A stretch of 64,000 nucleotides of DNA, taken from Chloroflexota bacterium (GTDB lineage: Bacteria; Chloroflexota; UBA11872; VXOZ01). Within the stretch, counting starts at the first letter, position 1, and each line of letters opens with the position of its first letter. The translations under genes and the position numbers were made by a program. The notes under the pieces were generated by a model that was not told the origin of the DNA, searched no databases, and saw only the letters and a list, made by a program, of their open reading frames with translations. Of the stretch, positions 20,504 through 26,478 are shown in pieces. The stretch spans positions 128,001 to 192,000 of the forward strand of contig OZ219801.1 of assembly GCA_964291655.2 (NCBI GenBank), written 5' to 3'.

Positions 20504-20669
20504 GGCAGCGCTGGTTTGCTACCTGCGTCCACACGAACGTACCCGCAGTGTGGCTCTGCGTCCCTCCCCATTCCGGTAGCGCAGGTTTGCAACCTGCGTC
20601 CACACGAATGTACCCGCAGTGTGGCTCTGCGTCCCTGCCCATTCCGGTAGCGCAGGTTTGCAACCTGCG
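20504..20669. repeat. 71-bp tandem repeat carrying a REP-like GTAG palindrome (2.3 units)
   Basis: ggtagcgcaggtttgcaacctgcg-like units at 20504, 20575 and 20646 with near-identical spacers; a further copy at 7810-7831. Confidence 0.85.
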
Positions 20670-22077: not shown

Positions 22078-23028
22078 ATGGCACTTGCGACACTCGCCCA
22101 AGATCCAAGAATTTACCGCATTACGGCCATTTGGAATTGGGACAGCATCGTTGAACTTTACTTTATCAACGGCCCCACGCGGGCGCTCATAGACACGGGA
22201 GCATCTGACACGCCGCGAGAGTACATTGAGCCTGCGCTGCGGTCGCTCGATCTGACGCTCGACGACATCGACGTCATTCTCAATACCCACGGGCACCAAG
22301 ACCACATGGGTGGCAATCACGCGCTGCTCAGCAAGATTGAGGCACAGGTGTACATGCATCAAGATGATGCATTCCTCGTTGAAGACCTTGAAGCGCATAT
22401 GGATTACATCTGGCACGCAGACAAGCACGTTCTTGGCTACGACCTTTCGGCGCGGAGGGCGCAGTTTCTGCATACGGTAGGCGGCCCTTCAGCAGTGCAC
22501 CGCAGGCTGGAAGACGGCGAGATTGTCGACCTCGGCGATGACATCCAACTCCGTGTGGTGCACCTTCCCGGCCACTCACCGGGCAGCACTGCTTACCACT
22601 GGGAAGCCAAGGGCATCGCGTTCGTTGGAGACGCCGTGCAAGGACTTGGCAGCAAGCCGGGCACTTTCCCTCTTTATTACACGGCGAGAGGCTACGAGCA
22701 ATCCATGCTGCGGCTGGCTGCTCTAAACATCGAGACACTCGCGCTCGCCCATCGATACCTATGGTCACAGGAACCCCGTGGCCCAATTCGCACCGGTAAA
22801 GTCGCGGAACAAACGGTGCAAGACAGCATCAACGTTGTCCGATTGATTGATCAATCTGTGCGGCACGCGCTCGAATCTCTTGCAGGCGCCGGTTTTCTGC
22901 AAGTCGCGCTCGCCGCGACACAGGCGCTGGCTACCGAGATACCCTTCACCGTCGATCCTCGCACGGGCTTGCCCACCGGCCTACCCGCAACCTTCTTTGC
23001 CCACTACACGGAACTAAATGGTGGCTAG
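22078..23028 (+). CDS. MBL-fold metallo-hydrolase
   Basis: LIDTG, THGHQDHMGG (HxHxDH), PGHSPG, VGDA. Confidence 0.9.
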   Translation: MALATLAQDPRIYRITAIWNWDSIVELYFINGPTRALIDTGASDTPREYIEPALRSLDLTLDDIDVILNTHGHQDHMGGNHALLSKIEAQVYMHQDDAFLVEDLEAHMDYIWHADKHVLGYDLSARRAQFLHTVGGPSAVHRRLEDGEIVDLGDDIQLRVVHLPGHSPGSTAYHWEAKGIAFVGDAVQGLGSKPGTFPLYYTARGYEQSMLRLAALNIETLALAHRYLWSQEPRGPIRTGKVAEQTVQDSINVVRLIDQSVRHALESLAGAGFLQVALAATQALATEIPFTVDPRTGLPTGLPATFFAHYTELNGG

Positions 23029-23065
23029 GGGCGCCCCCAATGCGCTGGCTGCCGCCGTGTGTTGG

Positions 23066-23094
23066 TTGCCCGTCCCCACGTCCCGTGATAGAAT
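23066..23094 (+). promoter_or_regulatory. Sigma70-type promoter for tRNA-Leu/greA
   Basis: TTGCCC -17 bp- TAGAAT with extended -10 TGn, 19 nt upstream of the tRNA. Confidence 0.6.
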
Positions 23095-23113
23095 CCCGCT
23101 GGGGACTGGTATC

Positions 23114-23198
23114 GCCGAAGTGGCGGAATTGGAAGACGCGCTACGTTCAGGGCGTAGTGGGCCTTGCGCTCGTGAGGGTTCGAGTCCCTCCTTCGGCA
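23114..23198 (+). tRNA. tRNA-Leu(CAG)
   Basis: Acceptor GCCGAAG/CTTCGGC, anticodon arm CTACG-TTCAGGG-CGTAG, long variable arm, GGTTCGAGTCC T-arm; followed by ACCT, so CCA is not fully encoded. Confidence 0.95.
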
Positions 23199-23254
23199 CC
23201 TCATAGGCCTGGTGGCTCGTGCGACCAACCATCAGAGAAAGGTTTGGAAAGACC

Positions 23255-24088
23255 ATGAGCACACAGGATTCTAATCAGTTGGGCCCTCTGTTTACGCAGT
23301 ACTTGCAAACAGTGGGCGTGGCAAACCTGAAGGGTGAAGAGGCCCGGCACCTCCGCAGATTTGTTAGTTGGTGCGGGCCGGACTCCCGAATAACATCGAT
23401 CTATCCCCACCAACTGCAGACCTATCTCGATCAAGTAACAGCGACCGCTGCCGATCCCAAGCCCTGTGCAAGTGCCTTGCGTACGTTCTTTTCCCATGCG
23501 CTGAAGTCTGACTGGGTAGAGAACAACCCCGCCACCGGTTTGCGAATCACCAAGCGCGCCACTAAGAGCAATTCCCGTGCCGCCGATGCTCAGGCCGGAA
23601 GCACTTTCATCAGCCGCAAGCGCTACGATGAATTGGGTGCTGAATTGAAGAACCACAAGAGTGAAGGACGCGAGCGCATCAGTAAGCTTCTGCATGCGGC
23701 CATCAAGGATGGCGATCTGCGTGAGAATGCGGCCTATGATGAGGCAAAGTATCAGCAAGGCATGCTGGAAGCCCGCATTCGCGAACTGGAGCAAACGCTC
23801 CGTACAAGCACGATTACCGAAGAGGAAGCACGGCCGGCAAACGGCGGTATTGACGCCGCCGACGAGGGCGTCAAGATTGGTATGCGCGTTGAATTGGAAT
23901 TGACTGACGGCAGTGAGACCATTGCTTATCAATTGGTTGGACCTTCCGAGGTCGACCCCCTTGAGGGCCGGATTTCGTACCTCTCTCCCGTTGGAGCAAG
24001 CCTCCTTGCCAAACGCGCCGGCGACACCGTTGCCGTGGAAACGCCTGCCGGAAGTGAGACCTATCGGGTTCTTAGCTACTCGTTCTAA
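23255..24088 (+). CDS. greA: Transcription elongation factor GreA with N-terminal integrase core-binding-like domain
   Basis: GDLRENAAYDEAK, LEARIRELE, GRISYLSPVGASLL, VETPAG; about 110-aa N-terminal extension. Confidence 0.9.
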   Translation: MSTQDSNQLGPLFTQYLQTVGVANLKGEEARHLRRFVSWCGPDSRITSIYPHQLQTYLDQVTATAADPKPCASALRTFFSHALKSDWVENNPATGLRITKRATKSNSRAADAQAGSTFISRKRYDELGAELKNHKSEGRERISKLLHAAIKDGDLRENAAYDEAKYQQGMLEARIRELEQTLRTSTITEEEARPANGGIDAADEGVKIGMRVELELTDGSETIAYQLVGPSEVDPLEGRISYLSPVGASLLAKRAGDTVAVETPAGSETYRVLSYSF

Positions 24089-24179
24089 CCACTCGCAGCA
24101 ACCGCCAAGCGGATACTGAACCGCGAGAGTCCGTCTGCCGGCTGGTCTCGCCGCGGCCCAATTCCACCCGCCGGAACCT

Positions 24180-24204
24180 GCATGTAGCAACTGCTACATG
24201 CTAC
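24180..24204 (-). repeat. REP-like GTAG palindrome
   Basis: Minus strand GTAGCATGTAGCAGTTGCTACATGC; 10-bp arms. Confidence 0.5.
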
Positions 24205-24330
24205 GCCTGTGTTGAAGACTCTTGTGCGCCGCCCCCACGTCGAATCCGCTTGTGAACGCTCCTAGTACCGCCTCCAAATGGCTGGTACAATACGAGTGTA
24301 CCTGCCAAATATTGTCCACCAGAGGATGTC

Positions 24331-24759
24331 TTGATGGAGACCATTGCTGCTGTTCTTAACTATGTCCTTGCGTTTCTTATCGCCTACTTTCTCGCGTTGT
24401 GGGTAGCCCTTGCCATCTGGGCATTCTATGACATTCGCACTCGCACCACTGACATATTGGTGCAGCTCTTCTCGGTTCTTCTCGTGCTGGCCTTCAATGT
24501 TTTCGGCCTCATTCTTTACTTGTTCCTCCGACCTAAAGATACGCTGGCAGAGGCAAACGTACTGGCGTTAGAAGAGGAGAGCTTCTTGGCCGAAAGCGAA
24601 TCCTTGTCGCGATGCCCCAATTGCCACTATCGCTTGCAACACGACTACCAGCTTTGTCCAATGTGCCAGCTTGAAATCAGAAGGCGCTGTACCGGCTGCC
24701 GGAATCTCACCGACTTGCAGTGGAGTGCTTGCGCCTACTGCGGGACGCCGGTCAACTAA
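24331..24759 (+). CDS. Membrane protein with double zinc ribbon
   Basis: TM helices, LYLFLRP, then CPNC, CPMC, CTGC, CAYCG. Confidence 0.85.
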   Translation: MMETIAAVLNYVLAFLIAYFLALWVALAIWAFYDIRTRTTDILVQLFSVLLVLAFNVFGLILYLFLRPKDTLAEANVLALEEESFLAESESLSRCPNCHYRLQHDYQLCPMCQLEIRRRCTGCRNLTDLQWSACAYCGTPVN

Positions 24760-25632: not shown

Positions 25633-25782
25633 CAAGGATCCACATAGGTACGCCCAGTTTGAGCTGAGATTGAGACGCGGCGTGTGATCGGGCAAGTTGC
25701 CAAGAAGCTCCAGGACAGTAACTTTCTGCAGGTTCCAGCACGAGACATTGCAGCATGTATACAATGTTATGCTATAGGAAGA

Positions 25783-26478
25783 ATGCCGACCTTAGGCTGG
25801 GAGGAGATCGCCACGAAATCATTCGCTAAGGAAGTTCTGCAAACGCTTCTACTCACCGCCATCATCTTCTTTGGCACACGTCTAGCGGTTCAAAACTATC
25901 GCGTCGAAGGCAGTAGCATGTATGGGACACTCCACCACAGTGAGTTCGTCTTGGTAAACAAGCTTGCCTACGTCCGCTCGGAGCCGCAGCATGGCGATAT
26001 AATCGTCTTTAACTATCCCATTGATCCTTCAGAGCAGTTTGTCAAGCGCATTATTGCCATACCCGGCGACACGATTGAGATTCGCCAGGGCGTAGTTTAT
26101 GTAAACGGTGAGAGTGTGACTGAACCATACGTCAGTGTGGGGTCTCAACTCGCTGGATTTGCCAACCGGGACGAACTCTCGAGCCGTACGATTCCCGCGG
26201 ATGCCTACTTTGTGATGGGTGACAATCGGCGCGGCAGCAGGGATTCTCGAGAGTGGGGATTCTTGCCGCGCAAATTCATCGTGGGCAAAGTCTGGGTAGC
26301 CTATTGGCCTTTGGAGGACTTCGGCGTTATCGAACACTTCGAGCTCATCGTGCCGGATCCCATTGACCGCAAGGAAGCTGTCGTCTTCGACGAAGTCGTC
26401 GTCTTTGACGAAGTCGTCGTCTTTGACGAAATCGTCGTCTTTGACGAAGTCGCTGATTACGACAAGGTCGCCGTCTAG
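25783..26478 (+). CDS. lepB: Signal peptidase I
   Basis: VEGSSM (catalytic Ser), FVKRIIA (Lys), GDNRRGSRDSR; start uncertain. Confidence 0.92.
   Translation: MPTLGWEEIATKSFAKEVLQTLLLTAIIFFGTRLAVQNYRVEGSSMYGTLHHSEFVLVNKLAYVRSEPQHGDIIVFNYPIDPSEQFVKRIIAIPGDTIEIRQGVVYVNGESVTEPYVSVGSQLAGFANRDELSSRTIPADAYFVMGDNRRGSRDSREWGFLPRKFIVGKVWVAYWPLEDFGVIEHFELIVPDPIDRKEAVVFDEVVVFDEVVVFDEIVVFDEVADYDKVAV
26377..26466 (+). repeat. 18-bp in-frame tandem repeat (xVVFDE x4 plus one degenerate unit)
   Basis: gtcgtcgtctttgacgaa units at the lepB 3' end. Confidence 0.9.

Follow-up and report, generated by a model that had tools for sequence, protein, structure and literature searches.

The window, a 64,000-nucleotide stretch of a Chloroflexota genome, encodes a protein in which the core-binding domain of a tyrosine recombinase, without its catalytic part, is joined by a flexible basic linker to a complete GreA transcript cleavage factor. 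This fusion is old and widespread, having been inherited across many Chloroflexota families, and the studied genome encodes a canonical GreA in addition to it. A literature search for fusions of a recombinase domain with GreA found no paper on the extra domain, which has apparently never been studied. The preliminary description had mentioned extended GreA proteins in Dehalococcoidia as possibly lineage-wide and little studied; both points stand, with the fusion carried by Dehalococcoidia and beyond. The coordinates of the gene, its parts and its neighbors are collected in Table 1.

Table 1. Position and basis of the features of the fusion locus in the window.
Feature	Positions	Strand	Basis
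Promoter-like site ahead of tRNA-Leu, TTGCCC / 17 nt / TAGAAT with upstream TG	23066..23094	+	Consensus scan
tRNA-Leu (anticodon CAG)	23114..23200	+	ARAGORN; Rfam RF00005, 51.4 bits
Fusion gene: core-binding-like domain, linker and GreA, 277 aa	23255..24088	+	ORF, Pfam, AlphaFold2, homologues
Tyrosine-recombinase core-binding (SAM-like) domain, residues 1-97	23255..23545	+	Profile matches, fold matches
Basic disordered linker, residues 98-117; R97 and K100 conserved, remainder low-complexity	23546..23605	+	pLDDT ~50
GreA N-terminal coiled coil, residues 118-187, acidic tip D154 and E157	23606..23815	+	Pfam PF03449, E 3.9e-19
GreA/GreB C-terminal globular domain, residues 204-274	23864..24076	+	Pfam PF01272, E 1.7e-20
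Downstream neighbor, 142-aa membrane protein with double zinc ribbon	24331..24759	+	Pfam DZR PF12773, E 2.9e-8, 34.2 bits vs 27.3

The open reading frame extends from an ATG to a stop codon at 24086-24088 on the + strand. All of the motifs singled out in the preliminary description lie within its 277-aa translation (LRRFVSWC at residues 33-40, ASALRTFFSHALKSDWVENNPATGLR at 72-97 and GDLRENAAY at 153-161), and the segment ahead of the GreA core, put there at about 110 aa, measures about 117 residues. In the homologue alignment, 31 near-full-length relatives keep the upstream part as protein, at identities down to 31%, and M1 is conserved, so the ATG at 23255 is preferred as the start over a GTG at 23219. 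Comparison with 14 relatives gave dN/dS values of 0.04-0.15 for the N-terminal domain, 0.03-0.14 for the GreA core and 0.12-1.0 for the linker, from pairs of which most have dS >1 and are hence saturated (dS is 0.45 for L003); these values point to purifying selection on the N-terminal domain. Protein conservation in the 31 relatives, the low dN/dS and a confident AlphaFold2 fold together argue that the N-terminal part is not a chance open frame. The full-length model (pLDDT 88.4, pTM 0.57) consists of two confident domains separated by the linker. In four metatranscriptome runs compared with positions 23050-24150, coverage was confined to the tRNA region (23087-23234) and came from contigs carrying the tRNAs of other organisms.

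The C-terminal part is a complete Gre factor. Both Gre domains score above their Pfam cut-offs (69 bits against 24.5 for PF03449 and 73.2 against 26.9 for PF01272), the modeled coiled coil consists of helices 121-151 and 159-184, and Foldseek matched this part to GreA, GreB and Gfh1 at E 6e-14 to 4e-10. All 17 fusions of one alignment agree at D154, E157, N158 and A159, and in a set of 74 each of these residues is conserved to at least 90%. From their alignment positions in Pfam and NCBIfam, we take D154 and E157 to correspond to D41 and E44 of Escherichia coli GreA. The two Gre domains and these acidic residues thus bear out the earlier recognition of a GreA with the acidic GDLRENAAY tip. The NCBIfam GreA models are not reached (127.2 bits against 139 for TIGR01462, 124.2 against 145 for NF001263), whereas the canonical 156-aa paralogue of the same genome passes with 165.8 bits against a cut-off of 145, and the GreA part of the fusion represents a divergent GreA subfamily. 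Relatives are named in the databases as "GreA" or "GreA/GreB family elongation factor".

The origin of the N-terminal domain is indicated by both profile homology and fold. The domain is a four- or five-helix bundle (helices at residues 9-20, 27-40, 51-64, 69-84 and 92-95), modeled with pLDDT >90 across most of residues 10-100 from an input of 74 sequences. A family profile built from 14 N-terminal domains matched the Brujita integrase structure 5vfz at E 1.3e-5, followed by weaker matches to 2kj5 (E 0.0027), 3nrw, 2kd1 and 2kob, and among 1.84 billion representative sequences it matched 923 proteins at E<=1e-3. These include true multi-domain integrases at E 7.9e-22 to 1e-9; in the best of them the matching region (E 7.9e-22) is itself Phage_int_SAM_1 above the Pfam cut-off. 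Among the profile-matched proteins scanned with Pfam, ten carry Phage_int_SAM domains above cut-offs, and six of the ten also carry the Phage_integrase catalytic domain. As a single sequence the domain scores 14.2 bits against PF13495, below the gathering score of 27, and of the 14 N-terminal domains three match PF13495, three PF02899 and two PF13102, all below threshold (best E 6.7e-4); kinship with Phage_int_SAM_1/4/5 is therefore seen in profile-level homology and shared fold, and not in single-sequence gathering scores.

Structural comparison gave the same picture. VIA-align placed the N-terminal model on lambda Int at Z 12.1 and on XerD at Z 12.0 (rmsd 2.4 over 85 residues), and in a fold search of 48,161 chains the top 22 were all recombinase-type, 21 of them at Z>=8, with the first unrelated chain at Z 6.4. 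Thus the core-binding (SAM-like) identity proposed earlier for the first ~100 residues was upheld by sequence profiles and by the fold, as was the proposed lack of a catalytic recombinase domain: a Pfam scan found no match to PF00589 in the fusion protein even at E<=10. With PF00589 absent and residues 118-277 being GreA, the protein is not a recombinase. A separate likeness to thioredoxins, seen in PDB matches through a WCGP motif at E 0.43-1.5 for the single sequence and E 0.16-1 for the profile, was rejected as chance, since an all-helical structure is predicted for the domain, the motif lacks its second cysteine and conservation of C40 across the family reaches only 43%.

To describe the distribution of the fusion, we sampled 401 Chloroflexota genomes, at least 88 of which carry it, representing 36 of 82 families; in these 88 genomes it is read as a single frame with no interrupting stop. 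Twenty-four of the 88 carriers, all with small genomes, have no other Gre match, and in a recheck of small genomes, five of five had one GreA_GreB domain, located inside the fusion frame. The carriers with no other Gre factor include genomes with a protein recorded as the GreA of Dehalococcoides or Dehalogenimonas, and the translations from three loci (L052, L053 and L054) are identical to database GreA entries of Dehalococcoides mccartyi and Dehalogenimonas alkenigignens. Within the class of the studied organism, all five genomes checked outside its genus have the short GreA form only, which makes the fusion an accessory gene in that class. In an unrooted tree of 74 fusions and 46 short GreAs, the latter chosen as best matches to the studied protein, the GreA parts of the fusions form one group (SH-like 93, SH-aLRT 95), suggesting that the architecture arose once, or at least that these GreA parts group together. 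The 27 contig loci bearing the N-terminal domain are an undercount, since the scan used peptide patterns of the studied subfamily only; similarly, word searches with the N-terminal domain returned 21 and 14 proteins, close relatives alone, and are uninformative on range or on other architectures. Restriction to Chloroflexota was judged from record titles and names. One 90% cluster has a member labeled as a Tectomicrobia MAG and another labeled Chloroflexota.

The gene lies 54 nt downstream of tRNA-Leu, close to the ~55 bp first reported, and this position had been read as a hint of integrase ancestry, integrases being often found beside tRNA genes. The proximity would also suit a captured integrase fragment left at a tRNA site as a relic. 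The surroundings of the gene speak against both. While the tRNA precedes the gene in all 14 close relatives (77-87% identity), it does so in none of 13 distant fusion loci, and the adjacency goes no further than synteny within the genus. No second copy of the tRNA's 23-nt 3' end occurs in the 64 kb with up to 3 mismatches allowed, the G+C content shows no step marking an island (0.53-0.63 throughout 18-30 kb), and the neighboring genes encode an aminotransferase, an MBL hydrolase, a DZR protein, RadC and a signal peptidase. With neither direct repeat, foreign composition nor mobile genes at the tRNA, the fusion gene sits in housekeeping-gene surroundings that bear no mark of a mobile element. 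The promoter-like site ahead of the tRNA, the sole consensus match in 22800-24500 (0.9 expected by chance), is kept in place in eight of nine aligned genus relatives and may serve as a common promoter of tRNA-Leu and the fusion gene; an Rfam scan of 22800-24400 found the tRNA and nothing else. The DZR family lies directly downstream of the fusion gene in four of eight distant loci scanned (L019, L020, L025 and L027). A PilZ protein is encoded upstream in distant fusion loci. Because synteny with PilZ and DZR holds in some lineages only, we make no claim that either protein is functionally linked to the fusion.

A second way in which the N-terminal domain could be an artifact is a mis-called start, with the GreA core alone being made. 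Older annotations of the Dehalococcoides orthologues do start within the gene, giving 156 aa in Swiss-Prot and 170 aa in strain CBDB1, and in the D. mccartyi sequences the core begins with an internal Met; the studied protein, however, has no Met at this junction. Moreover, a tryptic peptide of CBDB1 corresponds to residues 10-26 of the 170-aa entry (supplement of PMC7918482) and runs from the linker into the GreA core, opposing translation from the core start, the finding named in the preliminary description as one that would refute it; the peptide lies outside the core-binding domain, and the search database of that study held the 170-aa entry alone. Acetyl-K17 from the same study was considered as a site in the N-terminal domain and rejected, being located in the linker three residues before the internal Met. 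The curated entries of the two reference strains (156 and 170 aa) appear truncated relative to a protein of 265-266 aa. Together with the stop-free frame in 88 genomes, the indications of purifying selection, the 13 distant loci lacking the tRNA and the lack of an att-like repeat or G+C shift, this peptide leaves a relic or annotation artifact hardly credible as an explanation, and the present results already contradict it.

Conserved residues of the N-terminal domain are shared with true integrases. R76 is K or R in 99% of the 74 fusions, and in 32 core-binding instances from 10 integrase-like proteins the corresponding residue is R in 27, the F78 position is F in 26, N91 is kept in 20 and P92 in 26. 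Further conserved basic positions (35, 44, 71, 84, 97, 99 and 100) map to helices 27-40 and 69-84 and to the tail, while helix 51-64 is acidic. It is the second and fourth helices of this domain that insert into the major groove in structures of Cre, XerD and lambda Int. The 74 fusions have linkers of 17-43 aa with a mean net charge of +3.4. We read these shared and basic positions and the basic linker as signs that the N-terminal domain may still bind nucleic acid. The net charge of the domain core averages +1.4 (sd 3.0, range -15 to +8 in 74 fusions) and is +1 in the studied protein. At positions 91-92 the family consensus is NL, whereas the studied subfamily and the integrases have NP, consistent with an ancestral signature that has partly drifted.

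The most likely mechanism may be a nucleic-acid tether, and we give roughly even chances to the specific proposal that the core-binding domain and linker act as a general nucleic-acid anchor holding the Gre factor near RNA polymerase, rather than as a gene-specific address. In solved Gre complexes, RNA polymerase is engaged through the C-terminal Gre domain. In the fusion, this domain would dock at the rim of the secondary channel, as in ordinary Gre factors, and the coiled coil would bring the acidic tip to the active site for cleavage of backtracked RNA. Meanwhile the core-binding domain and basic linker would grip nucleic acid beside the polymerase, most plausibly duplex DNA, which by a geometric estimate could lie within reach of a ~20-residue tether from the GreA N-terminus. 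The cleavage factor would thereby be locally more concentrated at transcribing or stalled complexes and would stay on them for longer. In the 24 carriers where it is the only Gre factor, the fusion must serve transcription generally. The weak DNA binding of isolated recombinase core-binding domains when the catalytic domain is absent, the near-neutral charge of the domain core and the replacement of NP by NL at positions 91-92 count against a tether.

The near-neutral core is also what might be expected if the N-terminal domain were a protein-docking module that binds RNA polymerase or another factor, altering Gre affinity or competition without contacting nucleic acid. The docking site could be, for example, a lineage-specific RNA polymerase surface near the secondary channel, with other channel binders as competitors. 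The beta' subunit of the studied genome is long (1501 aa) and has extra sequence relative to solved beta' chains, and a different affinity class would be sensible where a canonical GreA coexists. However, the residues conserved in the 74 fusions include R76 and F78, common to true core-binding domains, a pattern that a kept ancestral nucleic-acid surface would produce, and the basic character of the linker is conserved as well. We consider docking to a protein an unlikely reading.

The preliminary description had proposed locus-specific targeting, in which the domain reads a defined DNA sequence and concentrates cleavage at certain genes or sites. Core-binding domains do contribute sequence recognition in recombinases. 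The canonical GreA in the studied genome leaves space for a specialized paralogue, and the short-form-only genomes of its class make the fusion accessory here. In addition, plant ALOG, a version of the XerC/D-type N-terminal DNA-binding domain that works alone, is proposed in the accessible text of PMC3537659 to be a sequence-specific transcription factor, and a solved ALOG-DNA complex appears in our fold list at Z 4.5. Yet where the fusion is the sole Gre factor its action would have to be genome-wide, a search near the gene for a candidate site, repeat or conserved motif found none, and the putative contact residues are conserved over 36 families and not diversified. Locus-specific control is therefore possible and less likely than a general tether; we regard it as distinctly improbable. 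The same low expectation applies to the fusion being the first DNA-anchored secondary-channel factor, one that would read DNA sequence or structure and direct cleavage to, for example, strong pause or conflict sites.

Compared with known proteins, the fusion shares with canonical GreA and GreB (PF03449 and PF01272; 1grj, 2p4v, 6ri7) the two Gre domains, their fold and the acidic tip, and differs in its ~117 extra N-terminal residues, comprising a folded domain and linker, and in its own tree branch. Similarly, NCBIfam NF004969 ("transcript cleavage factor/unknown domain fusion protein", 718 positions) and NF011309 (906 positions), which presumably belong to chlamydiae and spirochaetes, combine a C-terminal Gre core with an N-terminal extension; the fusion aligns to their C-terminal Gre parts only, and their extensions span several hundred residues and are of a different, unassigned kind, whereas that of the fusion is compact (~100 aa) with an identifiable origin. 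TFIIS, a cleavage factor that reaches the active site via the pore, has an extra N-terminal helical-bundle domain for recruitment, but it is an analogy only, being unrelated in sequence and fold and having an N-terminal domain that binds proteins, not DNA. Conflict-system fusions of TPR, GreA/B-C and PIN domains join a Gre domain to foreign modules and are proposed defense effectors in the accessible text of PMC8195603. As described in that text, they have the C-terminal Gre domain only, without the cleavage coiled coil, while the studied fusion is a complete GreA encoded by a housekeeping-like gene.

On the recombinase side, lambda Int, XerC/D, Tn1549 Int and Brujita Int have the same helical fold, profile homology and signature positions, but in these proteins the core-binding domain is followed by a catalytic domain and not by a Gre factor. 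Precedents for recombinase DNA-binding parts outside recombination are ALOG, MrpR of SPbeta, SroF of phi3T and Ndc10, of which the last three appear in the fold list at Z 8.1, 7.6 and 5.8, respectively. These are DNA-binding regulators or kinetochore proteins, and none is joined to a secondary-channel factor; moreover, MrpR and SroF retain the whole recombinase fold, whereas the fusion has the core-binding domain alone. It is thus a clean bacterial case of reuse of a core-binding domain without its catalytic partner.

Gre factors are regarded as freely diffusing proteins that find RNA polymerase via the secondary channel alone. A phylum-wide Gre factor with a built-in recombinase DNA-binding domain suggests another recruitment route. 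If the improbable site-specific reading were true, the fusion would add a gene- or site-specific layer of elongation control, acting beside a general GreA in genomes like the studied one. D. mccartyi, a bioremediation model, has no Gre factor other than the fusion. Work on Dehalococcoides, whether proteomic or functional, has so far been blind to the N-terminal domain because the entries appear truncated and because none of the clusters seen has a Pfam domain over the first ~100 residues.

The 277-aa open reading frame, separated from tRNA-Leu(CAG) by a spacer of 54 nt (Table), encodes an N-terminal domain (residues 1-97, N-domain), a linker (98-117) and a GreA core (118-277) in which Pfam recognizes two GreA domains well above their cut-offs (residues 118-187 and 204-274). 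The observations in the preliminary description are correct as written, with all quoted strings in place, and its statement that a catalytic recombinase domain is lacking is borne out by Pfam, which returned no match to such a domain in the 277-aa protein even at E≤10. NCBIfam models for XerC, XerD and tyrosine recombinases match weakly at residues 31-103 (E 0.008-0.05). Because the Gre part has the full set of cleavage-factor features, including the acidic tip (D154/E157), we assume standard Gre action for it.

Table. Features of the locus and its surroundings (positions in the window)
Feature	Position	Strand
71-bp unit, 2.3 copies, 95% matches, containing a palindrome, just downstream of the aminotransferase gene	20507-20669	
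Promoter-like site TTGCCC-17-TAGAAT with upstream TG, 5' of tRNA-Leu	23066-23094	
tRNA-Leu(CAG)	23114-23200	+
Fusion ORF, 277 aa (ATG at 23255, stop 24086-24088)	23255-24088	+
Small membrane protein with C-terminal double zinc ribbon, downstream of fusion gene	24331-24759	+
18-bp in-frame repeat, 4.1 copies, inside ORF 25684-26478 (+)	26380-26452	

The whole length of the protein is common to 31 relatives of 274-288 aa, down to 31% identity. A profile of 14 N-domains searched against PDB sequences picked up core-binding domains of integrases, namely residues 30-118 of Brujita integrase 5vfz (E 1.3e-5), 2kj5 (E 0.0027) and, more weakly, 3nrw, 2kd1 and 2kob. Against 1.84 billion representative proteins the same profile gave 923 matches at E≤1e-3 (105 at E≤1e-10), and a GreA-core HMM found a Gre part in 92 of the best 150 of these 923. 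Pfam was run on 22 of the best 150, with 17 drawn from the 58 that lack a detected Gre part and five from the 92 that have one; ten of the 22 contain Phage_int_SAM domains above cut-offs (for example P0128, with a profile E of 7.9e-22, P0132 and P0139), six of these ten also with the Phage_integrase catalytic domain, and the other 12 have GreA pieces, unrelated families or no Pfam match. A further 41 of the best 150 without a detected Gre part are mostly short (96-200 aa) and may be fragments or stand-alone domains. The best non-Gre matches are recombinase-like proteins with two to seven tandem core-binding (Phage_int_SAM) domains, in some cases followed by one catalytic domain (P0128, 818 aa; P0233, 706 aa; P0132, 506 aa; P0150, P0215, P0257 and P0261); to our knowledge, several core-binding domains arrayed in one integrase are unusual.

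AlphaFold2 predicts a helical bundle for the N-domain alone (pLDDT 76.8); given 74 sequences, it models the full-length protein at pLDDT 88.4, and most of the N-domain then exceeds 90. The recombinase core-binding fold proposed at the outset is what both structural searches returned: the top 33 Foldseek rows consist entirely of core-binding domains of recombinases (TM 0.51-0.70, E from 0.007), and in a VIA-align search over 48,161 chains, made without Foldseek, the top 22 chains are recombinase-type (lambda Int Z 12.1; XerD Z 12.0, rmsd 2.4 over 85 residues) and the best unrelated chain stands at Z 6.4. Since chance alone can give helical bundles Z values of this size, we weigh the fold jointly with the independent sequence evidence. 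In 32 core-binding domain instances from 10 integrase-like proteins, R76 of the fusion corresponds to R in 27, F78 to F in 26, P92 to P in 26, F36 to F in 21 and N91 to N in 20. A thioredoxin-like WCGP motif in the N-domain was judged a coincidence.

Several results support translation of the N-domain and GreA as a single protein. No Met stands at the domain junction of the window protein, and the reading frame is unbroken in all full-length genomic matches. In comparisons with 14 genus relatives, with dS saturated in most pairs, dN/dS ranges over 0.04-0.15 in residues 1-100 and 0.03-0.14 in the GreA core, against 0.12-1.0 in the linker; that the N-terminal part is a relic or artefact is highly improbable. 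For the extended GreAs that the preliminary description mentions in Dehalococcoidia, database entries exist: the exact proteins of loci L052 and L053 are entered for Dehalococcoides mccartyi as 'transcription elongation factor GreA' (265-266 aa), and that of L054 as a 268-aa GreA of Dehalogenimonas alkenigignens. Compared with the long forms P0284, P0291 and P0293 (265-266 aa), older D. mccartyi entries begin inside the gene (Swiss-Prot strain 195, 156 aa, P0296; CBDB1, 170 aa, P0288), and the 170-aa form takes as its initial Met a codon that is Leu in the long frame. A CBDB1 acetylome study (PMC7918482) includes GreA among the detected proteins, and its supplement reports a tryptic peptide, residues 10-26 of the 170-aa entry, that begins in the linker, spans the internal Met and ends in the core. 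In CBDB1, translation therefore starts upstream of the core, at odds with the possibility, raised earlier, of translation from the GreA core; the search database of that study contained the 170-aa form only, so that it could not have revealed peptides of the core-binding domain. An IMG fragment covering the N-terminal part, truncated by a frame break and belonging to the same cluster, bears the automatic name 'Site-specific recombinase XerD'.

To assess distribution, we surveyed 401 sampled genomes of the phylum Chloroflexota with a full-length fusion profile, which found a Gre match in 397. Fusions, defined as matches starting at profile position ≤12 and ending at ≥273, were counted among the best 150 matches, besides which there are 520 weaker ones. 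Among the matches listed, at least 88 of the 401 genomes carry the fusion (the unpublished G227 is counted among the 88; the unpublished G038, G344, G173, G272 and G145 are in the denominator only); 11 carriers are all 11 genomes of the window's genus and the other 77 fall in 35 further families, giving at least 36 of 82 families. The fusion is the only listed match in 24 of the 88 carriers, mostly genomes of 0.9-2.3 Mb, and a recheck with PF01272 of five fusion-only genomes found a single GreA_GreB domain in each, inside a long frame. All 11 genomes of the genus have two matches. The 35 other genomes of the class are all absent from the 88 carriers listed, and five of the 35, rechecked, match profile positions 117-277 only, in frames of 156-188 aa; among the genomes searched, the fusion is thus restricted within its class to this genus, which could reflect transfer from another Chloroflexota lineage, or losses. 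In trees of the GreA part, a single branch separates 74 fusions from 46 short GreAs (FastTree SH-like 93; IQ-TREE SH-aLRT 95), a topology compatible with a single origin, which stays unproven because the trees are unrooted and the short-GreA set is small and selected. The names and titles of the records retrieved are Chloroflexota throughout, bar one Tectomicrobia-labelled MAG protein whose cluster also contains a Chloroflexota-labelled member.

The tRNA-Leu(CAG) precedes the fusion gene in all 14 loci at 77-87% identity, and no tRNA lies within 3 kb of it in the 13 loci at 32-40% identity. Within the window no second copy of the tRNA 3' end was found, G+C is even around the locus, and the flanking genes are ordinary (aminotransferase, MBL-fold hydrolase, double-zinc-ribbon membrane protein, RadC, signal peptidase). 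The tRNA position, earlier taken as a hint of an integrase site, is therefore ancestry common to the genus and not an integration footprint. The promoter-like site 5' of the tRNA is kept in 8 of 9 aligned genus relatives; in the spacer (23201-23254) only a Shine-Dalgarno-like GGA is kept, with neither a promoter-like nor a terminator-like site, and co-transcription of the gene with tRNA-Leu is possible, judging from these motifs. The double-zinc-ribbon protein is also next downstream in four of the eight distant loci that were scanned, where a frequent order is aroB, PilZ protein, fusion gene, double-zinc-ribbon protein and maf. The 18-bp repeat translates into a VVFDE-type repeat that lies C-terminally in a signal peptidase I homologue. 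Eight public runs contain at least half of the sampled words of 23050-24150 (four at 99%), two of them labelled sponge metagenome; RNA runs over this interval gave tRNA-like contigs only.

Databases already list the protein as 'GreA', with no assignment for the additional domain: 17 ESM Atlas clusters of 263-268-aa Chloroflexota GreAs show the two Gre Pfam families only. The domain seems unstudied: no paper mentioning the fusion architecture was found in a literature with few subscription journals, in which the sole paper naming both GreA and Dehalococcoides was the acetylome study. The window's genome also encodes, on contig 2, a canonical 156-aa GreA paralogue (L001:1498-1968, minus strand) that scores above the NCBIfam GreA equivalog cut-off and has an altered tip, DLSDMGEY versus DLRENAAY in the fusion, with Asp replacing the second acidic Glu. 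The beta' subunit, on the same contig (L061:1827-6332, minus strand; 1501 aa), matches the 312-position model of Pfam domain 1 over residues 5-509, implying that its N-terminal part contains a large insertion, and about 350 further residues follow the final block that aligns with solved beta' chains.

Over the 74 fusions, basic residues are conserved at positions 35, 44, 71, 76, 84, 97, 99 and 100, clustering on helices 27-40 and 69-84 and the tail; helix 51-64 is acidic, and the linker (17-43 aa) is always basic, with a mean net charge of +3.4. The major groove is entered by helices two and four in Cre, XerD and lambda Int, where the stretch behind the core-binding domain follows DNA towards the catalytic domain. 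On these grounds we favour, at about an even chance, a role of the N-domain as a nucleic-acid tether for the Gre factor; that a domain of this recombinase fold targets a specific DNA sequence seems rather improbable. Against the tether count the near-neutral charge of the N-domain core and the fact that core-binding domains on their own bind DNA weakly, and docking of the N-domain on a protein, though unlikely, is the stronger of these two alternatives. As a nucleic-acid tether, the added domain and basic linker would keep the Gre factor near transcribing or stalled polymerase, where the Gre part would cleave in the standard Gre manner.
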